A stretch of DNA of 35,274 nucleotides from an uncultured Ruminococcus sp. (GTDB taxonomy: Bacteria; Bacillota; Clostridia; Oscillospirales; CAG-272). Shown here one piece after another: positions 1-16,490 of this stretch (positions within the stretch are counted from its first letter, which is position 1; each line of letters starts with the position of its first letter). A program made the position numbers and the translations under genes. The DNA is taken from the NCBI GenBank assembly GCA_902793915.1, contig CADBFJ010000005.1, positions 1 to 35,274 of the forward strand, in the 5' to 3' direction. The notes beneath the pieces were generated by a model. That model had not been told where the DNA came from and searched no databases. It saw nothing but the letters and a program-made list of their open reading frames with translations.

Positions 1-1
1 G

Positions 2-421
2 GTCGATCAGAGACTTCGCGACGAAGGTATCCGCAACCACGTTTCTCTCGTGGTCGGAGGCTCGATCCACAGTGCCGCCGACGTGGTCAAAGCGGTCGCG
101 CTCGGCGCCGACGCCTGCTACATTGCCACCGCCGCACTGCTTGCGCTCGGCTGTCACCTCTGCCGCACCTGCCAGAGCGGAACCTGCAACTGGGGCATCG
201 CCACACAGCGGCCCGATCTCGTCAAACGTCTCAACCCCGACATCGGCTCGGAGCGGCTCTGCAACCTCATGCACGCATGGAGGCACGAGATCATGGAGAT
301 CATGGGCGGCATGGGAATCAACTCGATTGAAGCCCTGCGCGGCAACCGACTCATGCTGCGTGGCGTGGGACTTAACGAAACGGAACTCGGGATCCTTGGG
401 GTCTCGCACGCAGGAGAATAA
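2..421 (+). CDS. glutamate synthase-related FMN-binding subunit (GltB domain-2 type), C-terminal part; 5' end lies outside the window
   Basis: The frame is open from the window edge. The tail GGSIHSAADVVKAVALGADACYIATAALLALGC.LCRTCQSG.C.WGIATQ is typical of the GltB/archaeal-type GOGAT FMN barrel. Confidence 0.8.
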   Translation, partial: VDQRLRDEGIRNHVSLVVGGSIHSAADVVKAVALGADACYIATAALLALGCHLCRTCQSGTCNWGIATQRPDLVKRLNPDIGSERLCNLMHAWRHEIMEIMGGMGINSIEALRGNRLMLRGVGLNETELGILGVSHAGE

Positions 422-423
422 CG

Positions 424-864
424 ATGAAACGAATTTACGTCAATGAAAAGTGGTGCCTCGGGTGCCACCTTTGCGAATATAACTGCGCCTTTGCCAATTC
501 GGGTATGAAGGATATGGTGCTGGCGCTCAAAGACAAAAAGATCTTCCCGCGCATCCACATCGAAGGCGACGAGAGGATCACCTTTGCCGTCTCCTGTCGC
601 CACTGCACCGACCCGCTCTGTGTCAAAAGCTGTATTGCCGGAGCGATCTCAAAGGTTGACGGCGTGGTGAAAATTGATAAGACCAAATGCGTCGGGTGCC
701 TTACCTGCGTGCTGGTCTGCCCACACGGCGCGCTTTCACTCGGCGAGGACGGGGTGATGCAGAAATGCGAACTCTGCCTCGAAAACGCCTGCGGAAAACC
801 CGCCTGCGTGACCGGTTGTCCGAATCGCGCCATCGTCTACGAAGAGCGAGGTGACAAGGCATGA
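424..864 (+). CDS. 4Fe-4S dicluster ferredoxin-domain protein
   Basis: Cys clusters CLGCHLCEYNC and CVGCLTCVLVCP plus further Cys motifs. It starts 2 nt after the upstream stop, and its stop overlaps the next start (ATGA at 861-864). Confidence 0.8.
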   Translation: MKRIYVNEKWCLGCHLCEYNCAFANSGMKDMVLALKDKKIFPRIHIEGDERITFAVSCRHCTDPLCVKSCIAGAISKVDGVVKIDKTKCVGCLTCVLVCPHGALSLGEDGVMQKCELCLENACGKPACVTGCPNRAIVYEERGDKA

Positions 865-2093
865 AAAAATACGTCATCATCGGAAATGGGACTGCCGCCG
901 TCGGGTGTGTCGAAGGCATCCGCTCGGTCGACAAGAAAAGCAAAATCACCATCATTTCCGAAGAGAAGCACGCGGTTTACAGCCGTCCACTCATCTCCTA
1001 CTACCTCGAAGGCAAAACCGACCTCCACCGGATGAAATATCGCGGCGACTCCTTCTGCGAGGACAACGACTGCCGCGTACTTTACGGAACGAGAGCCGTT
1101 TCAATCGACCCCGAAAAGAAACTGGTTGCCTTGAACGACGGAGCAAAGCTTGATTACGACGCGCTCTGCGTCGCGACCGGATCTCGCCCGTTCGTACCGC
1201 CCTTTGAAGGATTGGAAACGGTCGAAAAGAAATTTTCCTTTATGAAACTCGACGACGCGCTCGCCCTTGAAGGGACGCTGACGAAAGTCGCGCGCGTCCT
1301 TATCGTAGGAGCCGGACTCATCGGCCTCAAATGCGCCGAAGGAATCCGCGACCGCGTGGGAGAGATCACCGTCTGCGATCTTGCTGACCGGGTGCTCTCG
1401 AGTATTCTTGACGCCGACTGCGCCAAGATCGTGCAAGAGCGCCTCGAAGCAAACGGGCTGCATTTTTTGCTCGGCGACACGGCGGTTCGTTTTGAGAAAA
1501 GCAAAGCCGTTATGAAAAGCGGCAAGACGGTTGAGTTTGACGTCCTCGTGCTTGCCGTCGGCGTCCGGGCGAATACCGAACTCGTCAAAGAAGCGGGCGG
1601 CAACGTAAACCGCGGAATCGTGGTTGATGAAAAACTGCAAACCACTTTACCCTGCGTTTTCGCCGCGGGCGACTGCGCCGAGGGCTTTGACGCGTCAATC
1701 GGCGCAAACCGCGTGCTCGCCATTCTGCCGAACGCCTATCTGCAGGGACATGCGGCGGGCGTCAATATGGCGGGCGGCAAGGCCTGCTTTGACAACGCCA
1801 TCCCGATGAACTCGATCGGCTTTTTCGGCTATCATATCATGACCGCCGGCGCTTACGACGGAGAAATGATCGAAGAGAAAACCGGATCGGGCGTCAAGAG
1901 ATTCTTCATCGGCGAGAACCGGCTCAAGGGCTATATTCTGCTCGGGGAGGTCGAGCGCGCCGGAATCTACACCTCGCTGATCCGCGAGAGGACGCCGCTT
2001 GACACGATCGACTTTGATCTGATGAAAAAAGTTGCCACCAATATGATTTATTCCGAAAAAGAACGTAGAAAAACTTTTGGAGACGTGGTATAA
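861..2093 (+). CDS. NAD(P)/FAD-dependent (pyridine nucleotide-disulfide family) oxidoreductase
   Basis: Two Rossmann motifs (VIIGNGTAAVG and LIVGAGLIGLKCAE) and a late AAGDCA motif. It is translationally coupled to its neighbours. Confidence 0.8.
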   Translation: MKKYVIIGNGTAAVGCVEGIRSVDKKSKITIISEEKHAVYSRPLISYYLEGKTDLHRMKYRGDSFCEDNDCRVLYGTRAVSIDPEKKLVALNDGAKLDYDALCVATGSRPFVPPFEGLETVEKKFSFMKLDDALALEGTLTKVARVLIVGAGLIGLKCAEGIRDRVGEITVCDLADRVLSSILDADCAKIVQERLEANGLHFLLGDTAVRFEKSKAVMKSGKTVEFDVLVLAVGVRANTELVKEAGGNVNRGIVVDEKLQTTLPCVFAAGDCAEGFDASIGANRVLAILPNAYLQGHAAGVNMAGGKACFDNAIPMNSIGFFGYHIMTAGAYDGEMIEEKTGSGVKRFFIGENRLKGYILLGEVERAGIYTSLIRERTPLDTIDFDLMKKVATNMIYSEKERRKTFGDVV

Positions 2094-2094
2094 T

Positions 2095-2811
2095 ATGGTT
2101 ATCAACGTACAAAATCTCGATTTTCGCGCCATCAACGAGGCGATCCGACAGTCTGGCAACAAGGCAACGCTGACCGGCTGTATGGGGCAGCGTTTCATCG
2201 GCGCGGGGATGTCTTCGGTCGATCTGACCATCGACGGCGTACCCGGCAACGCGCTCGGCGCTTATCTCAACGGTGCAAAAATCACCGTGCGCGGAAATGC
2301 ACAGGACGCCGTGGGAGACACTATGAACGACGGGAGAATCGTCGTGGACGGCAACATCGGCGACGCCGCGGGATATGCGATGCGCGGCGGCTCGATCTTT
2401 GTTCACGGCAACGCCGGGTATCGTGCCGGCATCCACATGAAGGCCTACAAGGACAAGATCCCTCTCATGGTCATCGGCGGATGCGCCGGGAGCTTTCTCG
2501 GCGAGTATCAAGCCGGCGGCGTGATCGTCGTGCTGGGTCTTACAAAAGGTCGCCGCATCGTCAGCAACTTCCCCTGCACCGGAATGCACGGCGGCAAAAT
2601 GATCCTTCGCTCGAACTGCTCCGACGTGATCTTTCCCGATCAGGTCACGGCTCGCCCGGCAAACGCCGAAGATCTGGAAGAGATCAAAGCCTATGTTTCG
2701 GAGTTTTGCGCCCTGTTTGGCGAGGATGAGAAAGCCATTCTGGATGCGCCCTTTACGGTCGTGACTCCGGACAACAAAAACCCTTATCAACAACTCTACG
2801 TTGCAAATTAA
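2095..2811 (+). CDS. GXGXG-motif protein (GltB C-terminal domain-3 type glutamate synthase subunit)
   Basis: Repeated beta-helix glycine motifs (GNALGAYLNGAKITVRGNAQDAVGDTMNDGRIVVDGNIGDAAGYAMRGGSIFVHGNAG). The ORF-track TTG at 2077 overlaps the upstream gene, whereas ATG 2095 lies 1 nt after its stop. Confidence 0.8.
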   Translation: MVINVQNLDFRAINEAIRQSGNKATLTGCMGQRFIGAGMSSVDLTIDGVPGNALGAYLNGAKITVRGNAQDAVGDTMNDGRIVVDGNIGDAAGYAMRGGSIFVHGNAGYRAGIHMKAYKDKIPLMVIGGCAGSFLGEYQAGGVIVVLGLTKGRRIVSNFPCTGMHGGKMILRSNCSDVIFPDQVTARPANAEDLEEIKAYVSEFCALFGEDEKAILDAPFTVVTPDNKNPYQQLYVAN

Positions 2812-2822
2812 AGGAGGCTATC

Positions 2823-4028
2823 ATGAAATATTCCAAAGAAGAGGTACTGCAATACGTTGCCGAGGAGGACGTCAAGTTCGTCCGCTTGGTCTTTTGCGAC
2901 GTGTTCGGCAGGCAGAAGAATATTTCGATCATGCCGGACGAGCTGAACCGTGCCTTTACGCACGGCATCGCCTTTGACGCCTCGGCCATCGCCGGCTTTG
3001 GCGACGAGGCGCACTCGGATCTCTTTTTGCATCCCGATCCCGAAACGCTCGCTTGGCTCCCCTGGAGGCCCGAGCATGGCAAGGTCGTGCGGATGTTCTG
3101 CTCGATCACATATCCCGACGGAACGCCCTTTGAGTGCGATACGAGAAGTCTTTTGAAGTCTGCTGTCGAGGACGCAAAAAAGGCAGGATACAGCTTCTAC
3201 TTTGGCGCCGAGCAGGAGTTTTACCTCTTTGAGCTCGACGAAAAGGGACTTCCGACCAAAATTCCCTACGACAATGCCGGATACATGGATATTGCCCCCG
3301 AGGATCGCGGCGAAAACGTGCGCCGTGAGATTTGTCTCACGCTCGAGCAAATGGGCATCTATCCCGAAAGCTCGCATCACGAAGAAGGCCCCGGGCAAAA
3401 CGAGATCGACTTCCGCTATTCGGATGCTCTCTCGGCCGCCGACGACTTTATGACCTTCCAGACGGTGGTCAAGACGATCGCCCGCCGCAACGGGCTCTGT
3501 GCCGACTTTTCGCCCAAACCGCTGGAGAAGGCTCCCGGCAACGGATTCCATATCAACTGCTCGGCAAAACCGAATTCGCAGGTCGTGGAAGATCAAATGG
3601 TAGCGGGGATTCTCGAAAAGATCGCCCAGATGACGCTCTTCCTGAATTCCACCGAGCAATCCTACAAGCGGCTCGGGCAGATGAAGGCGCCCAAGTATAT
3701 TTCCTGGTCGAAAGAAAACCGCTCGCAGCTCGTGCGGATCCCGGCGGCTGCGGATGAATATAAGCGTGTCGAGCTGCGCTCGGCCGATCCGCTGTCAAAT
3801 CCCTACCTTGCCTTTGCACTCATGATCCGTGCCTGCCTCTTGGGGATCGAGAACAAGCTGCCGCTCCCTGCTCCGGTCAATCTCAATCTCTTCTCAACCG
3901 AAAAGTTGAAGGCACCCGGACTCGAAAAGCTGCCCGATTCTTTGCAGGCGGCAAAAGAGATTGCGAAAAAAGACGACTGGCTCAAAAACAATCTTCCGGC
4001 AAGAATTTTGGAGATCTATTGCAAATAA
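2823..4028 (+). CDS. glnA: glutamine synthetase (short type I-like)
   Basis: GS motifs FGAEQEFYLF, HHEEGPGQNEIDF, KPL..APGNGFHIN, QSYKRL and VELRSADPLSNPYLAFA. An SD AAAGGAGG lies upstream. Confidence 0.85.
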   Translation: MKYSKEEVLQYVAEEDVKFVRLVFCDVFGRQKNISIMPDELNRAFTHGIAFDASAIAGFGDEAHSDLFLHPDPETLAWLPWRPEHGKVVRMFCSITYPDGTPFECDTRSLLKSAVEDAKKAGYSFYFGAEQEFYLFELDEKGLPTKIPYDNAGYMDIAPEDRGENVRREICLTLEQMGIYPESSHHEEGPGQNEIDFRYSDALSAADDFMTFQTVVKTIARRNGLCADFSPKPLEKAPGNGFHINCSAKPNSQVVEDQMVAGILEKIAQMTLFLNSTEQSYKRLGQMKAPKYISWSKENRSQLVRIPAAADEYKRVELRSADPLSNPYLAFALMIRACLLGIENKLPLPAPVNLNLFSTEKLKAPGLEKLPDSLQAAKEIAKKDDWLKNNLPARILEIYCK

Positions 4029-4063
4029 CAAAAAAAGGATTTCGGTGAAAGGAGGGACAACCC

Positions 4064-4648
4064 ATGGCAGAGAGAGAACAAACCTATCGTGTCCTCATCG
4101 TCTCGGCATCCGAGGCATTTGCAAAAGAACTCTCCGGCCTTCTTCCCCTCCCCACCTTCTCGCCGATCCAAACGGTGCCTGCAATCAGCCTTGCAAAACG
4201 GGAACTCTCCGAGCGGGATTTTGATTTTGTCATCATCAACTCTCCGCTCCGCGACGATCCGGGTACGCACTTTGCAATTGACGCCGCCGATGCCTCCGGC
4301 ACGGTTGTCCTCTTCCTTGCACGTACCGAACAGTACGACGAGGCCTATGACACGCTCGCCGGTCACGGGGTGTTCCTGCTGCAAAAGCCGATCTCCCGCT
4401 CGCTCTTCTCGGTTGCGGCCGATTGGCTGGTCAGCGCCCGGGAGGGACTGCGCAAAACCCAGAAAAAGACCATGTCCATCGAGGAAAAGATGAACGAAAT
4501 TCGCCTTGTCAACCGTGCCAAATGGCTGCTCATCAGCGAGCTCAAAATGACCGAGTCCGACGCCCACCGCTACATCGAAAAACAAGCCATGGATCGCTGC
4601 GTCCCCAAAAAGCAGGTTGCGGAAGAGATTATCAAGTTGTATAGTTAA
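4064..4648 (+). CDS. ANTAR-domain RNA-binding regulator with a receiver-like N-terminus
   Basis: The C-terminal segment EEKMNEIRLVNRAKWLLISELKMTESDAHRYIEKQAMDRCVPKKQVAEEI is ANTAR-like. The N-terminal receiver-like fold reads FDFVIIN where the phospho-acceptor Asp is expected. SD GAAAGGAGGG. Confidence 0.75.
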   Translation: MAEREQTYRVLIVSASEAFAKELSGLLPLPTFSPIQTVPAISLAKRELSERDFDFVIINSPLRDDPGTHFAIDAADASGTVVLFLARTEQYDEAYDTLAGHGVFLLQKPISRSLFSVAADWLVSAREGLRKTQKKTMSIEEKMNEIRLVNRAKWLLISELKMTESDAHRYIEKQAMDRCVPKKQVAEEIIKLYS

Positions 4649-4667
4649 AAAAGCACCCCGATCGGGG

Positions 4668-4711
4668 CAAAACAAAAGAAACGGCTATTCTATCAAAATA
4701 GTCGTTTCTTT
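4668..4711. repeat. R1-A: conserved terminator-like hairpin (GAAACGGCTATT / AATAGTCGTTTC) with an A-run before it and a T-run after it; copy 1 of 3
   Basis: The same ~44-nt sequence caaaacaaaagaaacggctattctatcaaaatagtcgtttcttt also occurs at 8793-8839 and 11521-11566. It lies directly after the ANTAR gene stop. Confidence 0.85.
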
Positions 4712-4766
4712 TTGTGTTGCGTGGGAGATATTGATAGAATCCACGCGAGGGGGGTAAGAGGTTACC
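4712..4766. repeat. R2-A: 55-nt conserved element, copy 1 of 2
   Basis: ttgtgttgcgtgggagatattgatagaatccacgcgaggggggtaagaggttacc aligns with 9048-9103 with about 6 differences. It contains the small hairpins CGTGG..CCACG and GGGGTAAG..CTTACCCC. Confidence 0.8.
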
Positions 4767-4797
4767 TTACCCCTCCGCTCTCAAAAGAAACAATGCC

Positions 4798-4813
4798 GTC
4801 CCAAATTTGGGAC
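4798..4813. promoter_or_regulatory. O1: perfect 16-bp palindrome GTCCCAAATTTGGGAC (candidate operator)
   Basis: Read directly from the sequence. It sits 12 nt upstream of the extended -10 TGtTATACT (4822-4830), and related dyads occur at 5690-5705 and 8451-8466. Confidence 0.7.
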
Positions 4814-4821
4814 ATCGGTTT

Positions 4822-4830
4822 TGTTATACT
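4822..4830 (+). promoter_or_regulatory. extended -10 element (TGtTATACT) for the 4884-5677 operon
   Basis: TG at 4822-4823 and TATACT at 4825-4830. No good -35 is present; the -35 region is occupied by palindrome O1. Confidence 0.45.
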
Positions 4831-4883
4831 CCTTTTGCAAGGCGGTGATGAGTGCCGCAAAATAAAGCAAAAGGAGAACAAAA

Positions 4884-5138
4884 ATGGACACCAAAAGTAT
4901 TTTCAACCAGATGGAGCAGGTTCGCCGGGAGATGGCGACGATCGACCGAAACATGGAGACCGAGAAGCGGTCGCTTGATGGTTACGAGCGGCAGATTCAG
5001 GCAATTCAAAGGAGCGCCGAGCCGCACCGTCGCCGCATTTCCGAACTGGAACGCAAAAAGAGAGATCTGCAACGAAAGTTGGACACCCTCGGCCGCGATT
5101 ATCGCCGCGTATTGGAGTCGGAGAAAAAACGCAGATGA
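4884..5138 (+). CDS. small highly charged coiled-coil-like protein (84 aa), unknown function
   Basis: SD AAAGGAGAA lies 5 nt before the ATG. The composition is heptad-rich and Arg/Glu/Lys-rich, and the stop overlaps the next start (ATGA at 5135-5138). Confidence 0.6.
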   Translation: MDTKSIFNQMEQVRREMATIDRNMETEKRSLDGYERQIQAIQRSAEPHRRRISELERKKRDLQRKLDTLGRDYRRVLESEKKRR

Positions 5139-5677
5139 GCACATTTCCGATGTTAGAAGCGGCATTGGGCGGCGGATTTTGCCACGGTTCTCTCTTGTTG
5201 GTGGCGAGCAGGCCGGGCGTTGGGAAAAGTACATTATTGCGGCAGATCGCAGACGATTCCAACGGCATTTATCTCTGCAACGAACTCGACGCCGCCGGTG
5301 TGGAAAATGTGGCAAGGAGTGCGCACGGCAGGATTCTTTGTTTGGATTTTGACACCGCCGCACAAAGCATCACGGGAGAAACTCTAAAGCGGCTTGCGCA
5401 AAAATACGAAATCCCCATTCTGGTAGCGACAGGTGTATCCCGGAATTGCGAAGGGCGAGAAGATAAGCGCCCACGCCTTGCGGATCTGGATCAAAATCTG
5501 GTCGCCGCAGCCGACGTGGTTCTCGTGCTCTATCGGGAATCCTATTATCATTGCGGCATTTCCATAGAGCCGAACGACGACGAATTCATCCTTCGCAAAA
5601 ACGCACATGGGGAGATCTGCACCATTCCTGCCACCCTGCATCTCCCGGAACGTCTTTGGTCGGAACGGAAAAATTAG
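5135..5677 (+). CDS. truncated DnaB C-terminal-like (RecA-fold) P-loop protein, 180 aa
   Basis: GGGFCHGSLLLVASRPGVGKSTLL (Walker A in DnaB context) and LKRLAQKYEIPILVATGVSRNCEGREDKRPRLADLDQNLVAAADVVLVLYRESYY (DnaB H3/H4-like). It lacks the DnaB N-terminal domain and part of the core. Confidence 0.65.
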   Translation: MSTFPMLEAALGGGFCHGSLLLVASRPGVGKSTLLRQIADDSNGIYLCNELDAAGVENVARSAHGRILCLDFDTAAQSITGETLKRLAQKYEIPILVATGVSRNCEGREDKRPRLADLDQNLVAAADVVLVLYRESYYHCGISIEPNDDEFILRKNAHGEICTIPATLHLPERLWSERKN

Positions 5678-5679
5678 CC

Positions 5680-5708
5680 TTGCATTCCTGTCCCGAATAT
5701 GGTACAAT
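5680..5708 (+). promoter_or_regulatory. sigma-A-type promoter TTGCAT-17-TACAAT (with TGg extension) overlapped by dyad O2, GTCCCGAATATGGTAC (5690-5705)
   Basis: -35 at 5680-5685 and -10 at 5703-5708. O2 matches O1 at 13/16 positions, and its last 3 nt are the first 3 nt of the -10. Confidence 0.65.
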
Positions 5709-5739
5709 AGGATCAACCGGAATGAGAAAGGATGATCCT

Positions 5740-6729
5740 ATGGATACTCTGGAACCGAAAAAGTTAGCGCTCTTGCGGGTTTTGCAAATTCTCTGGAAGG
5801 AGAGCGACGCCGACCATCCGCTCCACCAAGGACAGATCGCATCGCTTTTGGAGCGAGAATACGGTATCGTGGTCGAGCGCAAGGCGATCGGGCGCAACCT
5901 CTCGCTCTTGCAGGAGGCAGGGTTTGAGATTGAAAACAACGGAGGCGGGTTTTATCTGAATTCCCGCCTTTTTGAGGATTCCGAGCTTCAACTTTTGATC
6001 GACGGCGTGCTGGCAAGTCGGCACATCTCGCTCCCGCACTCAAAGGAATTGATCGGCAAGCTCTGCCGGCTCTCCAATCGCTATTTTCCTCGCCACGTCT
6101 CGAACATTCATTCGGTCGGCGAGTGGAACAAGACCGAAAACAAAACGCTTTTCTATCACATTGAGCTTGTGGACGAGGCGATCGAAAGCGGGAAAATGGT
6201 GGAGTACGACTACAACAAATACGGTGTTGACAAGAAACTCCACAAAAGCTCCTTTCAGCGCATCAGCCCCTACCAGTTGATCTTACACAACCAGCGCTAT
6301 TATCTCATGGGGTACAGCTCCTATTGGAAACACATGGTCTATCACCGCATGGATCGCATCACAAACATGGTCATCTCGGAGCAGCCGCTTGTCCCGATCC
6401 GTACGATCGAGGGCTATTCCGACGGGATCAATTACCGCAACCTTTCCACCGCCATGCCCTATATGTTCGCCGAGCCGCCCGAGCGCATCACGCTCCGCAC
6501 CGGCGAGGGCATGATGGATCAACTTGTGGACTGGTTCGGCAAGGAGGTCATGGTGCAAAAGATCGAGGACGGCACCATCGAGGTCAGCCTCCACGCCGCA
6601 CCGACTGCCATGCTCTATTGGGCGCTCCAATACGCCGACGCCGTGGAAATTCTCAAGCCGCAGGGGTTAAGGGAGCGGATTTGCAAGGTGCTGGACGAGG
6701 CAAAGGGAAAATATCAACAAGGAAAGTGA
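5740..6729 (+). CDS. HTH-WYL-WCX family transcriptional regulator (BrxR/CapW/PafBC-like architecture)
   Basis: N-terminal wHTH (LALLRVLQILWKESDADHPLHQGQIASLL), WYL core (YQLILHNQRYYLMGYSSYWKHMVYHRMDRI) and a C-terminal extension. ATG 5740 has SD GAAAGGA. The ORF-track start at 5551 and ATG 5722 lie upstream of or too close to the predicted promoter. Confidence 0.75.
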   Translation: MDTLEPKKLALLRVLQILWKESDADHPLHQGQIASLLEREYGIVVERKAIGRNLSLLQEAGFEIENNGGGFYLNSRLFEDSELQLLIDGVLASRHISLPHSKELIGKLCRLSNRYFPRHVSNIHSVGEWNKTENKTLFYHIELVDEAIESGKMVEYDYNKYGVDKKLHKSSFQRISPYQLILHNQRYYLMGYSSYWKHMVYHRMDRITNMVISEQPLVPIRTIEGYSDGINYRNLSTAMPYMFAEPPERITLRTGEGMMDQLVDWFGKEVMVQKIEDGTIEVSLHAAPTAMLYWALQYADAVEILKPQGLRERICKVLDEAKGKYQQGK

Positions 6730-6739
6730 CGGTAGCAAA

Positions 6740-7876
6740 ATGGAAAAATTAAAAAATTTGTTCGACTATGCCACAAGCGAACTTTCACAGGATGCTTTTC
6801 TCTGTTGGCTTCTTGAAAACTACAACTGCGAGAATCCAGTCGTCAGCAGAGCCGCACTTGATCTACTTGGCAAAATGACAGATTTGGATTGCTCCAAGCC
6901 CGGTGCTGTAACCGAGTTAAAGACCGATCGACAAGAGACCGAGAACTATCCCAATCCCGAACCCAAAAAGGACGAGAAGAAGTCCATCCACTGCGTTTTT
7001 GATATTATTGTAACCTTTCGGTATCGTGAAGAAAAACACATGCTTTTGATTGAAGATAAAATCTTTTCTTCGCCAAGCAATAAACAAATCGGTTTTTACC
7101 CGCAAGCATTCAAAAAATATGCAGAAAGACATTGCATTCCGAAGGATAATCTATACCGTGTAATTTATAAGACGGATATTGATCTTTATGGATACAAGGA
7201 AAAATCTCCGGGATGGAATAAGTCTTTTTATCTTGACAACATTTATTCTTTTTTTGAAAAGCAACAACACTCCGGTTGTCTGATTTTTGACCAGTACCGC
7301 AAGCACATTTGCGAATTGCATGAAAAGACAACCAAACTTCCTGACAAACCTATGGCGGAATGGAAAGACCTCATCCTTTTCAGAACCTATATTCAGCAAA
7401 AGATACTCCCATTCGTCAACTCCAATTATGGCGATGTTCTAGAAGCAAGTCCTTCCGGGTGGATTTCTTATTCTGCAATTTGGATCGAACGCAAAGACAA
7501 TGACAACATCACAAAAGATAAAAAAGTAAGGTTTTCTCTTGAAATCAGTTTTTGGCGTCACACTCCCTCGGCGCGTATCACCTTGCGCGGCGGAAAAATG
7601 GAGGTAAAGAATAAGGATCTTTTTGCTAGTAAAAAGTTCAGGGAGTGGGCAGAAAGCAACTTGATTCGGGGAAGCAAAGGGTTTAGAGTTTATAGGCGCG
7701 ATTATTGTGTTGGACACAACAAAAAAGAATTTCTTTCTTATGAAAGCGGCATTGAAAAAGTAACGCAGGATTGCAAAGAATTGATTGAAGATTTTGCCAA
7801 AATGTGCCGTGAGATGAATAAAGAACTCCCCCAGCACCCCGACTGGCGGATTTTCTTGACAGAACGAGAAAAGTAA
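6740..7876 (+). CDS. PD-(D/E)xK nuclease-superfamily protein (PDDEXK_4-like N-terminus) with an unknown ~230-aa C-terminal region
   Basis: SELSQDAFLCWLLEN... then FDIIV...HMLLIEDKIFS...KQIGFY fits the E..D..(D/E)xK layout. It starts 11 nt after the WYL stop. The gene is AT-rich (19/60 GC at 7141-7200), unlike the WYL gene. Confidence 0.6.
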   Translation: MEKLKNLFDYATSELSQDAFLCWLLENYNCENPVVSRAALDLLGKMTDLDCSKPGAVTELKTDRQETENYPNPEPKKDEKKSIHCVFDIIVTFRYREEKHMLLIEDKIFSSPSNKQIGFYPQAFKKYAERHCIPKDNLYRVIYKTDIDLYGYKEKSPGWNKSFYLDNIYSFFEKQQHSGCLIFDQYRKHICELHEKTTKLPDKPMAEWKDLILFRTYIQQKILPFVNSNYGDVLEASPSGWISYSAIWIERKDNDNITKDKKVRFSLEISFWRHTPSARITLRGGKMEVKNKDLFASKKFREWAESNLIRGSKGFRVYRRDYCVGHNKKEFLSYESGIEKVTQDCKELIEDFAKMCREMNKELPQHPDWRIFLTEREK

Positions 7877-7906
7877 AGCAAAACCCCTCAATAAAACCGG
7901 GCTTTC

Positions 7907-7926
7907 GGGCGGTGTGTTTACCGCCC
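7907..7926. terminator. hairpin GGGCGGT-gtgttt-ACCGCCC between convergent genes
   Basis: A 7-bp GC stem lies between the nuclease-like gene (+) and the 146-aa gene (-). The U-tracts are weak. Confidence 0.4.
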
Positions 7927-7951
7927 TGTTCCAAGAGCTTTTATGCTTTTT

Positions 7952-8392
7952 TCAATCAAAAAGCACGTCCATCTTTTGTTGAAGAAAAGGAATACATTCA
8001 TTTACTGTTTTGGGTAAGTGTTCCCTCTGCATATGAATTTCGGCAAATGGTTTTTCGTCAGAATCATGCGGGATGCATACACGGATCATTTCCGAATATC
8101 CAAGCCCTTTTAATTGATCAACGGTTTCAAAGAACTCTTGATTTTGATAGATCATGTCCCATAAGATCAAGGTTTTAAGCACCGAAAGATCCGGATTGGG
8201 ATGGTATATGTCTTGAAAAGCAAAATCCGCAAAGCCGGAACAAATTGCATTGCATAAATCTTCGGCATAATACCCGAACTTTTCAATTCTCTCAATAATT
8301 TTACCCTCCACTTTTCCTTCCGTTTTTTTGACAAGCGCAATGATTTCATTGTTCCGATTTATTTCAAGCGAAATCAACATCAAAAAATCCAT
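7952..8392 (-). CDS. hypothetical protein, 146 aa, no recognisable motif
   Basis: Clean AT-rich ORF convergent with the nuclease-like gene. It has its own promoter carrying dyad O3. Confidence 0.55.
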   Translation of the reverse strand: MDFLMLISLEINRNNEIIALVKKTEGKVEGKIIERIEKFGYYAEDLCNAICSGFADFAFQDIYHPNPDLSVLKTLILWDMIYQNQEFFETVDQLKGLGYSEMIRVCIPHDSDEKPFAEIHMQREHLPKTVNECIPFLQQKMDVLFD

Positions 8393-8447
8393 CCTTTCTA
8401 TTTACCCTGTCCGGTTTCAATCTTGCTATAGAAATGATAGCATAGTA

Positions 8448-8476
8448 ATTGTACCAAATAGGGGACGAATTCCTAA
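8448..8476 (-). promoter_or_regulatory. promoter TTAGGA-17-TACAAT (TGg extension) overlapped by dyad O3 (minus-strand GTCCCCTATTTGGTAC, 8451-8466)
   Basis: -10 at 8448-8453 and -35 at 8471-8476 (plus-strand coordinates). O3 has the same geometry relative to the -10 as O2. Confidence 0.6.
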
Positions 8477-8638: not shown

Positions 8639-8674
8639 CCATAATCCAACGATTACCCATAATCCAACGATTAC
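8639..8674. repeat. tandem 18-nt direct repeat ccataatccaacgattac x2
   Basis: Two exact adjacent copies; a single copy occurs at 11384-11401. It marks the left edge of the ~400-nt duplicated module. Confidence 0.85.
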
Positions 8675-8703
8675 TGTTTGAAATAAGCCAAAAAAGCAAA
8701 AAA

Positions 8704-8742
8704 GCAACCGTTACAGACCTGTTTTTGATCTGTATCGGTTGC
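8704..8742. terminator. bidirectional terminator-like hairpin (GCAACCGTTACAGA / TCTGTATCGGTTGC) flanked by A- and T-runs
   Basis: 14-bp stem with one mismatch. The homologous hairpin at 11430-11470 has a different outer stem sequence (GGCAGCC/GGCTGCC) but keeps the pairing. Confidence 0.6.
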
Positions 8743-8792
8743 CTTTTATTTGTTCAAAAACTCGAAAAAGCCCTTATTTCAAGCACTTTTTG

Positions 8793-8839
8793 GGCAAAAC
8801 AAAAGAAACGGCTATTCTATCAAAATAGTCGTTTCTTTA
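8793..8839. repeat. R1-B: second copy of the R1 hairpin
   Basis: Near-identical to 4668-4711 and 11521-11566. Confidence 0.85.
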
Positions 8840-9017
8840 TGGCACGGCATGAGGGATTCAGAACCAAACTGCGGCGAAAGGGGGGCTTTTCGTGCTCGTT
8901 CCTCTCTTCCTTGTTTTCGCCTCCGTGCACCGTTTTCTCGTCGGCTGAACGCCTCCGTTTTGCTTGCGGCAAAAACCGAAAACGGCAGGGGGTTGTTCAT
9001 TGCCCCCATCTCGCGCC
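8840..9017. repeat. X1: ~178-nt unit beginning with a degenerate copy of the tRNA-Arg 3' end (T-loop to CCA), then a 33-nt variable segment and a 78-nt block identical to X2
   Basis: 8840-8866 tggcacggcatgagggattcagaacc resembles the tRNA-Arg 3' end at 11776-11802. 8840-8880 matches 11567-11607 at 39/41. 8914-8991 is identical to 11641-11718. 8881-8913 is unrelated to 11608-11640 but has the same length. Confidence 0.8.
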
Positions 9018-9047: not shown

Positions 9048-9103
9048 TTGTGTTGCGTAGTAGATATTGATAGAATCCACGAGAGGGGGGATAAGTGGTT
9101 ACC
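9048..9103. repeat. R2-B: second copy of the 55-nt R2 element
   Basis: ttgtgttgcgtagtagatattgatagaatccacgagaggggggataagtggttacc aligns with 4712-4766. Confidence 0.8.
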
Positions 9104-9270: not shown

Positions 9271-10218
9271 TTATAGATATGGATTTATTGGAAATGTTTT
9301 TTCTTCCTTCGCCCATTTTTCACTTTGAATCAACGGGTTAACCAATAATGAAATATCATTGAAATCCATACTGTTTTTAAAGCCTTTACTCCCATCTAAA
9401 AATCTACAATTCATCAATCTATCAAATGTTGCCTCACAACTTCGCCGCGGGTATCTCCCAAGTGTGGTGTCAAAAAAATCATTATGATAGGAATAATGAT
9501 GCGTATAAATAAACTCTTGCCATGACTCAAAGACCTCTTCTTCTGGACGTAAATCTACTATCTCGATTTCTTCCATTGTTCTATCCGTAACATTCCCCCA
9601 TGCATTTTTTAACATGGATACAGCTTCGACATCGCTTTTAGGTGCACTGTATCCAAAGATGGTTATCATATACGCTACTTCAAGTGCATTTTGTAATGCT
9701 TCCCATGATTTAGAAATGGCAGGATTTTTTTGATAATTCTTATTTTTTATTGGATATAGTAGCCCTATACCCTGTAGTGGTTCACCACATTTGCATTTAC
9801 CGCCGATATTACCAATGACATTATCTTTTTCACAATATCCTATTGCAACATTGCCATGAAGAAATGCAAGTGAGGTTAAACTCAAAATAAGAAAATCATA
9901 TACCGTCGGATTGTCGGGTATAGTATATTCCGATATATACTCATATATCTTCGTCTCAAGTTCCAATTTTGCTTTTTCATAAATACTACCGGGAGTACTT
10001 TTTTCTGAAATCTCCATATAGATATCTTCTAAATTATCCGAAGTAGTATCCAATGACAAAGACGAAATGATATTTTTTAGACCAAGTTTTTCTATAAACC
10101 CCTTCATTGCAGAAATCTTTTTCCCATTTTTATCACCGTTGGGTATTGCTGCACAACTCGCACCAGCACCAAGAATTACAACATGGGGGCGCCATTTCAT
10201 TTGTTCTTCATATGTCAT
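9271..10218 (-). CDS. compact SIR2/sirtuin-like NAD-binding protein (315 aa)
   Basis: VVILGAGASCAAIP (GAGxS...IP), AFLHGNV (catalytic-His-like HG) followed by a Cys cluster (C-x12-CKCGEPL), and ITIFGYSAPKSD (second Rossmann strand). AT-rich, and last gene of a 3-gene operon. Confidence 0.6.
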   Translation of the reverse strand: MTYEEQMKWRPHVVILGAGASCAAIPNGDKNGKKISAMKGFIEKLGLKNIISSLSLDTTSDNLEDIYMEISEKSTPGSIYEKAKLELETKIYEYISEYTIPDNPTVYDFLILSLTSLAFLHGNVAIGYCEKDNVIGNIGGKCKCGEPLQGIGLLYPIKNKNYQKNPAISKSWEALQNALEVAYMITIFGYSAPKSDVEAVSMLKNAWGNVTDRTMEEIEIVDLRPEEEVFESWQEFIYTHHYSYHNDFFDTTLGRYPRRSCEATFDRLMNCRFLDGSKGFKNSMDFNDISLLVNPLIQSEKWAKEEKTFPINPYL

Positions 10219-10223
10219 TCCTA

Positions 10224-10415
10224 TTATTTACCGCCAATCTCACAGCATATATCTTCAAAATCTCCATCTGGAATTTCTCGACCGATTTCATTTGACAAAA
10301 TGGTTGCCAGCATATTGGTCTTCACTCTTTTATTCGGGTACAAATCATTTTGAAGTAAGCGAAAGAAATTCTCGTCGCTTAAGCATTTTTGAAATAAAGT
10401 ATTTAAATCAATCAT
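10224..10415 (-). CDS. small protein (63 aa) paralogous to the N-terminal domain of the 283-aa protein
   Basis: MIDLNTLFQKCLSDENFFRLLQNDLYPNKRVKTNMLATILSNEIGREI aligns with MIDLKTLFQKHPDCISNENRFRALMNELYPNERAKTNVLATILSTGIGREI. ATG 10415 has SD GGTGAG; the ORF-track start at 10439 overlaps the upstream stop. Confidence 0.55.
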   Translation of the reverse strand: MIDLNTLFQKCLSDENFFRLLQNDLYPNKRVKTNMLATILSNEIGREIPDGDFEDICCEIGGK

Positions 10416-10435
10416 ACGCCCAATCTCACCACATA

Positions 10436-11287
10436 TCAATCCAAGCTAATCCACATCGCTGGGCGGACTGCCTTGGAATAGTCAACATTGTAGCCATAGT
10501 ACTCGACAGAGCCATCACGGTTGACATAAGCAGCGTTGCTAGATTGCATACCGGGTGACCGTAGCCACCAACGTGCCTCATTAACAAACCAACCCTCACA
10601 TTTCCTCGCTTCATCAGAACTAAAATATTTGTTTGCCTCTAGTATGCTCAATAGAAATACTTTATCGTTTGTTTTTTTACCAGGAGAAATCCTATAAGAC
10701 GGATTCTTATCAGCAGTAACGGTTGTACTTTGGATCTTTCTCTGTTCCTCTGCGCTGAATGCACAATTAAGAAAATCGTTGTTCAGCCACTTGCGCAATG
10801 AACAAGCTTCCCATGTTGTGGAAACAGAATACCCCGGCGGATCATGATACGGCTTGATAGTCAGCAAAATTTTGCTAATGATAAATGCTTTCCTATCCTT
10901 TTCGTCCAATATGAGCCATTCGATTGGAGCAGGTTCACCATACGCAGACTGTGGATAGCGCCCGAAGGTGATAATACCTCCATGTGCTACTGTTAAGTTG
11001 TTAGAATCTGCAAAACCGTCAGCAGTCGGCCACAGTTGCAAGCATTTCTCACACAAATCGCTTGCAAAGCCATATTCATTTTCCAGCCACTTCGCAAAGT
11101 TGCTTAAAGATAAATAGTCGCTTTTCCCGTTTTGAATCTCTCGACCGATTCCAGTCGACAAAATGGTCGCCAGCACATTTGTCTTCGCTCTTTCATTCGG
11201 GTACAATTCGTTCATCAGCGCGCGAAAGCGATTCTCGTTGCTTATGCAGTCAGGATGCTTTTGAAATAAGGTTTTTAAATCAATCAT
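10436..11287 (-). CDS. two-domain protein: unknown ~85-aa N-terminal domain plus a DUF6273-like C-terminal domain
   Basis: The C-terminal motifs RKWLNNDFLNCAFSAEEQ, DKVFLLSILEA, WWLRSPG and VRPAMWI match my memory of the DUF6273 family. There is no signal peptide. Confidence 0.55.
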   Translation of the reverse strand: MIDLKTLFQKHPDCISNENRFRALMNELYPNERAKTNVLATILSTGIGREIQNGKSDYLSLSNFAKWLENEYGFASDLCEKCLQLWPTADGFADSNNLTVAHGGIITFGRYPQSAYGEPAPIEWLILDEKDRKAFIISKILLTIKPYHDPPGYSVSTTWEACSLRKWLNNDFLNCAFSAEEQRKIQSTTVTADKNPSYRISPGKKTNDKVFLLSILEANKYFSSDEARKCEGWFVNEARWWLRSPGMQSSNAAYVNRDGSVEYYGYNVDYSKAVRPAMWISLD

Positions 11288-11378: not shown

Positions 11379-11383
11379 ACGCC

Positions 11384-11401
11384 CCATAATCCAACGATTA
11401 C
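11384..11401. repeat. single copy of the 18-nt repeat ccataatccaacgattac; left edge of duplicated module copy 2
   Basis: Identical to the units at 8639-8674. The homology continues rightward through 11742. Confidence 0.8.
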
Positions 11402-11429
11402 TCTTTGAAACGAGCCGAAAAACAAAAAA

Positions 11430-11470
11430 GGCAGCCTTTACAGACCTGTTTTTGATCTGCATCGGCTGCC
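11430..11470. terminator. bidirectional terminator-like hairpin (GGCAGCCTTTACAGA / TCTGCATCGGCTGCC)
   Basis: Homolog of 8704-8742 with stem-preserving substitutions. Confidence 0.55.
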
Positions 11471-11520
11471 TTATATTGATTCAAAAACTCGAAAAAGCCC
11501 TTATTTCAAGCACTTCCGGG

Positions 11521-11566
11521 GTAAAACAAAAGAAACGGCTATTCTATCAAAATAGTCGTTTCTTTT
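11521..11566. repeat. R1-C: third copy of the R1 hairpin
   Basis: Near-identical to R1-A and R1-B. Confidence 0.85.
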
Positions 11567-11742
11567 TGGCGCGGCATGAGGGATTCAGAACCCAACTGCG
11601 GCGAAAGTGATTGTATCCTACGCGCGCCGTCACTTTTCTCTTTTCGCCTCCGTGCACCGTTTTCTCGTCGGCTGAACGCCTCCGTTTTGCTTGCGGCAAA
11701 AACCGAAAACGGCAGGGGCTTCTCGTCCTCTCGTACGGCACC
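11567..11742. repeat. X2: second copy of the tRNA-Arg-3'-end-derived unit
   Basis: 11567-11593 tggcgcggcatgagggattcagaaccc matches the tRNA 3' end at 26 of 27 positions (one extra base). It carries the identical 78-nt block and a divergent 33-nt segment. Confidence 0.8.
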
Positions 11743-11775: not shown

Positions 11776-11852
11776 TGGCGCGGCATGAGGGATTCGAACC
11801 CCCGACCTACTGGTTCGTAGCCAGGCACTCTATCCGGCTGAGCTAATGCCGC
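11776..11852 (-). tRNA. tRNA-Arg (anticodon ACG), CCA encoded
   Basis: The minus strand reads GCGGCAT TA GCTC AGCCGGATA GAGT G CCTGG CTACGAA CCAGT AGGTC GGGGG TTCGAAT CCCTC ATGCCGC G CCA. It is 77 nt and close to E. coli tRNA-Arg(ACG). Confidence 0.92.
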
Positions 11853-14036: not shown

Positions 14037-14142
14037 TATTTCGCCCTCCCCTCTTGTTTTTCGCCTGAAAGAATGGTACAATCAGTATAGCATACAAATC
14101 GACTTCTTGCAAGGGACTTTTCATAAAAAAGTGAGGGCTTCC

Positions 14143-16460: not shown

Positions 16461-16490
16461 ATTGTACCACAAAAAGAGGTTGCCTTGCAA
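16461..16490 (-). promoter_or_regulatory. promoter TTGCAA-18-TACAAT (TGg extension) for prfB, overlapping the rlmH terminator hairpin
   Basis: ATTGTA at 16461-16466 and TTGCAA at 16485-16490. Confidence 0.55.

Follow-up and report, generated by a model that had tools for sequence, protein, structure and literature searches.

A probable WYL operator in two promoter registers within a variable defence island of an uncultured Ruminococcus sp.

The cassette and its dyad-bearing promoters

We analysed a stretch of 35,274 bases from an uncultured Ruminococcus sp., referred to here as the window. It carries a cassette of five genes, one of which encodes a WYL transcription factor, together with three copies (O1, O2 and O3) of a short dyad. 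The first-pass annotation of this DNA had read the dyads as operators of one repressor governing a candidate new five-gene system. The features of the cassette are as follows; type A and type B denote two arrangements of dyad and promoter.

4798-4813: O1, the perfect palindrome GTCCCAAATTTGGGAC, read from the sequence; type A (dyad, 11 nt, -10)
4822-4830, plus strand: extended -10 TGtTATACT (hexamer 4825-4830) of the operon of the coiled-coil and DnaB_C-like genes, without a -35 hexamer
4884-5138, plus strand: cc84, coiled-coil protein of 84 aa, with weak Pfam coiled-coil matches only
5135-5677, plus strand: minimal DnaB_C-like P-loop protein of 180 aa (Pfam DnaB_C, 7.7e-22)
5680-5708, plus strand: promoter of the WYL gene; -35 TTGCAT (5680-5685), 4 nt, dyad, -10 TACAAT (5703-5708)
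5690-5705: O2, GTCCCGAATATGGTAC, type B, within the WYL gene promoter
5740-6729, plus strand: WYL transcription factor of 329 aa (Pfam WYL and WCX), composed of a winged helix-turn-helix (wHTH), a helical bundle, WYL and WCX
6740-7876, plus strand: PDDEXK_4 (PF14281) nuclease-like protein of 378 aa (Pfam 26.1 bits, cut-off 22.3)
7907-7926: possible terminator where the PDDEXK_4 and 146-aa genes converge, a hairpin GGGCGGT-gtgttt-ACCGCCC read from the sequence; the terminator scan made no call here
7952-8392, minus strand: orphan gene of 146 aa, without a family
8434-8466, minus strand: promoter of the orphan gene; dyad (8466-8451), 11 nt, TGcTATCAT (-10 at 8439-8434), with an overlapping TACAAT (8453-8448)
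8451-8466, minus strand: O3, GTCCCCTATTTGGTAC, in the orphan gene promoter

The pattern GTCCCNNNNNNGGKAC matched the window at O1, O2 and O3 alone, three sites against zero expected, and no match was found in 100 dinucleotide-preserving shuffles. When one mismatch was permitted, the scan of the window returned the same three places and no extra site. This confirms the earlier statement that the dyad occurs at three places, each on a promoter. Rfam and tRNA scans of the window detected two tRNAs only and no RNA element at the dyads.

In the O2 promoter the spacer between TTGCAT and TACAAT is 17 nt. The right part of the dyad overlaps here with another recurrent sequence, TGGTACAAT, which is enriched in the window (4 copies versus 0.1 expected). 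Two copies are on the minus strand (8448-8456 and 16461-16469), and the others are at 5700-5708 and 14074-14082. This organism seems to prefer it as an extended -10, and at O2 and O3 it coincides with the operator's right half-site. The copy at 16461-16469 belongs to the prfB promoter, which had been put forward as a control, and our analysis confirmed that it has no left (GTCCC) half-site. Because TGGTACAAT is over-represented, a local -10 consensus partly explains the right half of O2 and O3, and the discriminating part of the dyad is therefore the left half-site together with the spacing.

O3 as it stands in the window is compatible with both registers, since TTAGGA-17-TACAAT can also be read there. 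Only one homologous locus, L096, was available for O3; it keeps the dyad, the 11-nt spacing and TGcTATCAT, but not TTAGGA or TACAAT. Most likely, then, the geometry of O3 is that of O1 (type A) and not that of O2, and the identical geometry previously ascribed to O2 and O3 would not extend to function. At the O1 position, L091, a 98%-identical relative (its 4870-4925 versus window 4790-4841), has kept TGtTATACT and has a degenerate dyad, ATCTCAAATTTTGGGCA, with a 7-nt centre. L091 diverges fully 10 bp past this -10 (window position 4841); the cassette is either lacking there or replaced by a different one.

Dyad sites and the WYL family in related loci

The comparison covered 35 kb of the host genome and about 90 related loci of gut and rumen Clostridia, which were covered for 7 kb to either side of the WYL gene; the dyad was counted in 1.03 Mb. 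The exact pattern GTNCC-N6-GGNAC occurred 45 times, and 29 of the 45 occurrences were intergenic although intergenic DNA amounts to 10%. The dyads cluster in intergenic DNA near the WYL gene. Two arrangements were found. In type A, which is used at target promoters, a -10 hexamer follows the dyad after exactly 11 nt and a -35 is lacking; O1 and, most likely, O3 belong to this type, which was also found ahead of the coiled-coil gene in L092, L095, L009, L001 and L093. In type B, which is used at the regulator's own promoter (O2), a -35 (TTGnnn) is followed after 4 nt by a dyad whose final TAC opens TACAAT; this type is present likewise at the WYL promoters of L001, L006, L009, L013, L046, L079 and L093.

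The 11-nt register is strict. A -10-like hexamer stood exactly at +11 in 27 of the 86 oriented exact sites, where the background is 2.5% per position, and each of the other offsets from +7 to +15 was represented by four sites at most. A relaxed scan with one mismatch gave 92 type A sites in 84 non-redundant loci, compared with 7-22 at control offsets; 61 of the 84 loci had at least one type A site, and 12 had type B at the WYL promoter. Type A sites became less dense with distance from the WYL gene, from 23.5 per 100 kb at up to 500 bp to 4.4 at 5-8 kb (controls, 0.5-2). The remaining ~30 kb of the window contained no type A site.

The consensus of type A was tttAT-GTACC-AAATTT-GGTAC-A...tTGn-TATAAT. 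None of 83 type A sites had a -35 matching in four or more of six positions (the best matched in three); with a spacing of 17 bp, such an element would coincide with dyad positions 5-10. An extended TGn -10 was present in 39 of the 83. Judged from these patterns, the operator of the family would be GT(A/C)CC-(A/T)6-GG(T/G)AC, used in two fixed registers, and the neighbouring WYL factor very probably binds at the dyad. The family-wide comparison thus supports what had been proposed for the window, namely that the dyad is tied to the HTH-WYL gene, that this gene is autoregulated through O2 and that one WYL regulator co-controls three transcription units. Co-variation of dyad position 3 with the protein was considered and dropped, because position 3 differs between sites of one locus.

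The genes behind type A sites mostly encode ATPases, that is, AAA proteins (20 of 53), SNF2/ResIII, DnaB_C/KaiC-like and UvrD-like proteins; a retron reverse transcriptase and orphans are also found. In other species, what the operator most often targets directly is a conserved protein of ~670 aa (669-672 aa), with a C-terminal AAA domain and AAA_lid_6 behind an unannotated N-terminal region of ~430 residues. Its sole PADLOC match is a weak one to IetA, and it is present in L032, L035, L044, L045, L050, L052, L060, L067, L070, L071, L079 and L085.

In the WYL protein of the window, Pfam placed WYL at residues 141-210 and WCX at 246-320. An AlphaFold2 model made with 28 homologues (predicted local distance difference test, pLDDT, 73) showed a wHTH (6-73), a helical region (80-150), WYL (152-216) and WCX (248-327), the helices of the linker being 80-92, 98-112, 116-124 and 135-150. 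In a Foldseek search with this model, DriD (4.5e-9) and PafBC (4e-8) outranked CapW (2.6e-4) and BrxR (3.2e-4) by 4-5 orders of magnitude in E-value, and the top 15 matches were all DriD or PafBC. Sequence matches in the PDB were DriD chains only, and phmmer at E ≤ 10 against solved structures gave no BrxR or CapW match. In the HMMER alignment, the DriD residue Y192, which contacts single-stranded DNA (ssDNA), pairs with the invariant Y188, and R207 with the invariant R203; DriD Y168, R176 and R178 lie outside the aligned block (R178 possibly corresponds to R174). PADLOC matched the WYL protein with PDLC01652 at 9e-24.

More than 3,400 relatives of the WYL protein were found in the protein collection. 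A relative is encoded in at least 559 species-level genomes, nearly all of them metagenome-assembled genomes of gut or rumen Clostridia, and the family is distributed over Oscillospiraceae, Acutalibacteraceae and other Clostridia. Some orthologues are without a recognisable site. The protein is nearly absent from viral contigs, with 2 close relatives in 2.9 million; as relatives in GenBank phages have at most 31% identity, a phage origin was rejected. These results point to a large, uncharacterised, DriD/PafBC-like WYL family that resides in variable defence islands and probably controls adjacent genes.

Cassette partners and the island

The stop codon of cc84 overlaps the start of the DnaB_C-like gene (ATGA). 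The DnaB_C-like protein has a Walker A motif (GVGKST) and the conserved C-terminal block of DnaB, but lacks the DnaB N-domain and ~80 internal residues; in alignment with Geobacillus DnaB, its residues 11-79 correspond to 196-263 and 81-165 to 343-428. With no N-domain, an incomplete RecA-like C-domain (~255 residues) and at most 66 bits in NCBIfam DnaB models, whose cut-offs are at least 385, it does not qualify as a DnaB replicative helicase. Its ILCLD is in our own reading a probable, not an established, Walker B; HMMER places ILCLDFD on a DnaB helix and not on the Walker B strand. When profiles were compared, the C-terminal half alone aligned with the 229-249-aa ATPases of other loci, and only two close homologues of the protein were found among 5.8 billion proteins. 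The PDDEXK_4 protein, a predicted nuclease, has a D...EDK motif in its translation (CVFDIIV...LLIEDK). Its start lies 10 nt from the WYL stop, so the PDDEXK_4 gene would be co-transcribed from the O2 promoter.

The orphan is more likely a protein of 142 aa starting at 8380, as in gene callers and in the L096 homologue. It matched no family in Pfam, PADLOC, NCBIfam or PHROGs. Word-indexed and exhaustive HMMER searches returned only itself and the 86% homologue of L096, and its single-sequence AlphaFold2 model (pLDDT 46) was unusable. The ratios of nonsynonymous to synonymous substitution (dN/dS) versus L001 were 0.04 for cc84, 0.25 for the DnaB_C-like gene and 0.13 for a third comparison, and that of the orphan versus L096 was 0.18. 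The cassette genes are real and under purifying selection. No significant match was found in PADLOC-DB v2 for the coiled-coil, DnaB_C-like, PDDEXK_4 or 146-aa proteins; the WYL protein alone is matched there, which supports the earlier remark that the gene combination was not recognised as a named defence system.

The partners of the WYL gene vary among the related loci. Examples, with the percentage given for the WYL protein, are:

L001, WYL 87%: coiled-coil, DnaB_C-like, WYL and a PvuRts1I/SRA type IV enzyme, at another chromosomal site; no 146-aa gene
L095, WYL 81%: coiled-coil, AAA-Peptidase_M41 (AAA-M41), WYL and two GmrSD genes
L009, WYL 76%: coiled-coil, AAA-M41 and WYL
L093, WYL 72%: coiled-coil, AAA-M41 and WYL
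L006, WYL 65%: AAA-M41, WYL and PDDEXK_4
L002-5, WYL 64%: WYL alone

Over the ~90 loci, coiled-coil homologues ahead of an ATPase gene were present in five (L001, L009, L092, L093 and L095) and the 180-aa DnaB_C-like protein recurred in two. PDDEXK_4 followed straight after WYL in ~7, including L006, L036, L055, L061, L066 and L077, and in none did the 146-aa gene adjoin a WYL gene. The homologue of the latter in L096 adjoins an acetyltransferase gene. By tblastn with the window genes against 88 loci, the corresponding numbers were 2 for the coiled-coil gene, 1 for the DnaB_C-like gene and 5 for PDDEXK_4 directly after WYL. All five genes are present in L089 and L090, but these two assemblies are the same strain as the window (99.7-100% identity).

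Only the coiled-coil gene, an ATPase gene and the WYL gene travel together, while the downstream gene varies (PDDEXK_4, GmrSD or PvuRts1I-like). The ATPase slot is filled by the DnaB_C-like protein or by an IetA-like AAA-protease; the AAA-M41 protein of the relatives matches PADLOC IetA at 9e-18. Directly 3' of WYL (58 loci) we found GmrSD in 10, AAA with AAA_lid_6 in 9-10, PDDEXK_4 in at least 5, SNF2/ResIII in 4-5 and PvuRts1I-SRA in 1. Genes directly 5' of it (47 loci) included small DnaB_C/KaiC-like ATPases (8), AAA-M41 (6) and DUF2779 (6). PADLOC matches among this cargo were to a methyl-directed restriction endonuclease, GmrSD/HEC-06/SspE, a DrmD-like SNF2 protein and a retron reverse transcriptase. 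The defence setting proposed for the window is supported by such neighbours of WYL orthologues (GmrSD, PvuRts1I/SRA, PDDEXK_4, SNF2, IetA-like and retron reverse transcriptase), and the cassette may be regarded as part of a defence island. The five gene families are not co-inherited across the loci, and the first-pass view of a five-gene system is only partly supported; the comparison suggests a local regulon built by cassette exchange and not a fixed five-part machine.

In L092, which has the closest relative of the window's ATPase, positions 1-6614 hold three large genes (813, 768 and 798 aa). They have no Pfam match and stand immediately 5' of the coiled-coil/DnaB_C-like pair.

To the left of the cluster is an ANTAR response-regulator gene (4064-4648) and to its right, on the minus strand, a tRNA-Arg gene (11776-11852). 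The GC content, ~0.56 in the flanks, drops to ~0.52 over the coiled-coil, DnaB_C-like and WYL genes and to 0.38-0.44 from PDDEXK_4 onwards as far as ~11,500; over the last two cassette genes it is ~0.39. The cassette is bracketed by the following direct repeat:

4665-4766 (left copy) and 8792-8841 plus 9048-9103 (split right copy): direct repeats bracketing the cassette

A second direct repeat of 340 bp (8656-8994 versus 11383-11721, 88% identical) brackets the next cassette. About 25 nt of the 3' end of tRNA-Arg (tggcRcggcatgagggattc...) are copied at 8841-8870 and 11568-11600, inside the 340-bp repeats, and look like att sites left behind when islands inserted one after another at the tRNA. 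Among the window open reading frames (ORFs) of the island, no integrase or recombinase gene was found. A hairpin-containing element of 50 nt, GGGCAAAACAAAAGAAACGGCTATTCTATCAAAATAGTCGTTTCTTT, is present at the cassette boundaries in three copies, 98% identical (4665-4714, 8792-8841 and 11517-11568). It looks like a bidirectional terminator and may also serve as recombination homology.

Homology between loci breaks near the dyads, at 4841 versus L091 and at 5689 and 5146 versus L009. Moreover, a tract of 200 bp (5361-5560) is 99-100% identical to L001 5620-5820, while the surroundings are 65-90% identical and the chromosomal sites differ, which suggests a recent recombination inside the DnaB_C-like gene. 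Breakpoints beside conserved promoter and operator DNA, together with this tract, point to cassette exchange by recombination.

The second cassette (9271-11287, minus strand) is also of low GC and encodes a 315-aa protein, a 71-aa ORF and a DUF6273 protein, none of them with a dyad. The 315-aa protein is shorter than its 344-aa form in L089 and L090 through an in-frame deletion of 87 bp at 9871. It had no match in Pfam, PADLOC, NCBIfam, PHROGs or PDB, and the label SIR2-like was rejected because no search backs it. The 71-aa ORF (10224-10439) duplicates the N-terminus of the DUF6273 protein (10436-11287), with 80% identity between 10264-10385 and 11127-11248. In the left flank (2823-4648), the ANTAR gene comes after a glutamine synthetase gene of the glnA type, and two stacked hairpins follow (4654-4669 and 4674-4712). 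The glnA-type and ANTAR genes look like a nitrogen-control unit, which forms a conserved left flank of the island in L089-L091.

Direction of regulation and relation to known systems

We regard it as likely that the dyads are WYL operators, used in two registers, and that they define a local regulon with exchangeable members. On balance, and with less assurance, we favour a dual regulator, which would repress itself at type B and activate at type A. At type B the spacer and the first bases of the -10 are taken up by the dyad, so that a bound dimer should block RNA polymerase at the regulator's own promoter and produce negative autoregulation. This would also hold down the co-transcribed PDDEXK_4 nuclease, and the O2 promoter would give low, self-limited expression of both genes. 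By analogy with the family, ssDNA arising from phage replication or DNA damage may bind the WYL domain and alter operator occupancy. The dyads of O1 and O3 span -39 to -24, over the -35 position; here the dimer would most likely recruit RNA polymerase as DriD does, and both promoters would be switched on. The coiled-coil protein and the DnaB_C-like ATPase would then be produced together, their translation being coupled by the ATGA overlap. As there is no terminator between 5677 and 5740, read-through from the O1 promoter may also raise the WYL and PDDEXK_4 products. The interchangeable ATPase slot suggests an effector or a feedback component.

Several points weigh against this dual reading. 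Extended -10 promoters can fire without a -35 in Firmicutes, so simple repression would also work at the roughly one half of type A promoters that are of this kind. The binding of the WYL protein to the dyad is deduced from their co-occurrence, and ~12% of the relaxed type A matches are expected to be false. The Foldseek TM-scores were low (~0.25) owing to a different domain arrangement in the monomer model, and the ranking comes from E-values. Only some of the DriD contacts align, R204 facing a non-basic residue. In addition, the defence-associated WYL regulators studied by experiment, BrxR (PMC9122601) and CapW (PMC11662680), are repressors. Repression throughout, as the first-pass annotation had it, is accordingly possible but in our judgement unlikely: a WYL dimer of BrxR/CapW type would occlude all three promoters, and its release by ssDNA or DNA damage would derepress the five genes. 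O2 does lie within the spacer and -10 of a canonical promoter, and a dimer at -39 to -24 of the extended -10 promoters (39 of 83) would still hinder RNA polymerase; the placement of the dyad at O1 and O3 agrees with occlusion as well as with activation. Such repressors are established for defence loci, CapW being released by ssDNA (PMC9122601; PMC11662680), and the cargo of the present family includes GmrSD, which may be compared with BrxR and BrxU. However, pure occlusion needs no strict register, and an 11-nt register is kept at non-orthologous target promoters, while own and target promoters differ in register. The nearest relatives of the protein are also DriD and PafBC, with BrxR and CapW 4-5 orders of magnitude below them and without a sequence match at E ≤ 10; the protein carries the extra helical bundle typical of activators, and the geometry of O1 and O3 is of the activator type. 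These points make the repressor proposal questionable.

The dual, locally acting regulator was also weighed against broader and narrower readings. It is improbable that the five genes make up a new, dedicated defence system whose parts act together, even though the genes are contiguous under one common operator, are bracketed by direct repeats, have a GC content below that of the flanks and occur all together in two more assemblies (L089 and L090). Those two assemblies are, however, the same strain; L001 has the PvuRts1I/SRA enzyme after the first three genes and no 146-aa gene; L009, L093 and L095 hold AAA-M41 in the ATPase slot, with GmrSD or an unknown protein as the fourth; the 146-aa homologue of L096 stands beside an acetyltransferase gene; and the first three genes differ in GC from the last two (~0.52 versus ~0.39). 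We also give little credence to a global DNA-damage regulator like DriD, DdaA or PafBC, of whose genome-wide regulon the window would show a part. The fold and promoter geometry are DriD-like, the targets include helicases (UvrD, SNF2) and DnaB_C/RecA-like ATPases, and the type A density at 5-8 kb is still over control. But the density falls steeply with distance from the WYL gene, the other ~30 kb of the window is without a site, the neighbourhood and chromosomal position of the WYL gene vary by species, and some orthologues have no recognisable site. The targets in the DNA covered (35 kb here and 7 kb to either side of the WYL gene in the relatives) are, moreover, type IV restriction enzymes, retron reverse transcriptase and IetA-like proteins, and not recA, uvrA or ssb. 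Least probable by far is a dyad that is a chance palindrome, an intrinsic terminator or a cassette recombination site. The terminator scan called O1 a terminator-like hairpin, and homology breaks near the dyads at the three positions given above. Against this, chance is excluded by the window shuffles and the family-wide counts; the stems are short (5 bp), position 3 is variable and the 11 nt to the -10 are fixed in dozens of unrelated promoters; a recombinase gene was not found in the island; and breakpoints at conserved promoters are expected under short-homology exchange, which is compatible with an operator.

An extension of the dual reading, offered tentatively and considered rather unlikely, is that the coiled-coil protein, a P-loop ATPase and the WYL factor constitute a portable three-part sensor and switch into which effectors are plugged downstream. 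A minimal DnaB_C/RecA-like protein or an IetA-like AAA-metalloprotease would serve as the ATPase. The dimer would shut its own promoter and, upon ssDNA, turn on the promoters without a -35; the target ATPase would feed back by making or binding ssDNA or by degrading the regulator; and the effectors would be interchangeable type IV restriction or nuclease proteins. If true, the WYL factor would be an integral part of a new modular, inducible defence architecture widespread in gut Clostridia and more than an accessory regulator.

WYL factors are emerging as a coupling between DNA damage or phage replication and the expression of costly immune genes, and the cases studied so far are from Proteobacteria and Actinobacteria. 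What is new here concerns a large family, so far unstudied, of anaerobic Clostridia from gut and rumen: its putative operator, the logic of its regulon and the range of its cargo. A testable prediction is that one protein acts in two fixed registers, with self-repression at one and probable activation at the other. Candidate defence genes are those of the DnaB_C-like ATPase and its coiled-coil partner, the PDDEXK_4 nuclease, the ~670-aa AAA protein and the 142-aa orphan, and the operator could be used as a handle to find more inducible defence genes in such genomes.

Among known systems, BrxR and CapW are similar in that a WYL regulator is encoded within variable defence loci or at their start, GmrSD-type enzymes being among the genes of such loci, and in having inverted-repeat operators, more than one box per island and autoregulation (PMC9122601); the ligand of CapW is ssDNA (PMC11662680). 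They differ in the weaker fold match (1e-4 versus 1e-9), the lack of a sequence match, the absence of a helical-bundle linker and the absence of a two-register architecture, and the BrxR box (11 bp, 5-bp spacer, 11 bp) lies downstream of the -10. With IetAS and other defence modules made of an ATPase and an effector, the likeness is in the AAA-ATPase/Peptidase_M41 fusion (IetA, 9e-18), which fills the DnaB_C-like slot in L009, L093, L095 and L006; the DnaB_C-like protein of the window has no IetA match, and IetS is a separate serine protease. Two further regulators were likened by description. DdaA of Moraxellaceae has a three-helix bundle, binds the palindrome CGWCA-N5-TGWCG and activates CRISPR-Cas, restriction-modification, Zorya and DNA-repair genes (PMC12392091); it is a precedent for WYL activators with a helical bundle that control defence loci. 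DdaA is a genome-wide SOS replacement, whereas no repair genes are seen among the targets here. SiwR of Mycobacterium smegmatis, also a WYL activator, is reported to control adjacent genes (PMC10693628).

The closest counterpart is DriD of Caulobacter crescentus, a wHTH-three-helix bundle-WYL-WCX activator triggered by ssDNA (PMC10853764, PMC13004042). Its target promoters are without a -35; the region where one would stand is overlapped by the DriD site, whose distance to the -10 is constant, and at the didA promoter an "optimised -35" was put within the dyad spacer (PMC13004042); DriD also binds its own promoter (PMC10853764). The identity is only ~15%, the phylum is another one, and the operator is CGAC-N7-GTCG as against GTNCC-N6-GGNAC. 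Activation is established for DriD and is predicted here from geometry and similarity. The DriD regulon comprises dispersed DNA-damage genes (didA, recA, recJ, dnaG and bapE), while the genes here are adjacent, variable and of defence type; no DNA-repair or cell-cycle regulon was found behind type A sites within 7 kb of the WYL gene in either direction. Nevertheless, DriD is the best match to the WYL protein of the window both by sequence profile and by fold. The two are of nearly equal length (327 versus 329 aa) and have a helical bundle between wHTH and WYL, each has a short palindrome with an AT-rich centre for a dimer and a site at its own promoter, and the type A promoters, with the site over the -35 position, no -35 and a fixed distance to the -10, resemble those activated by DriD.

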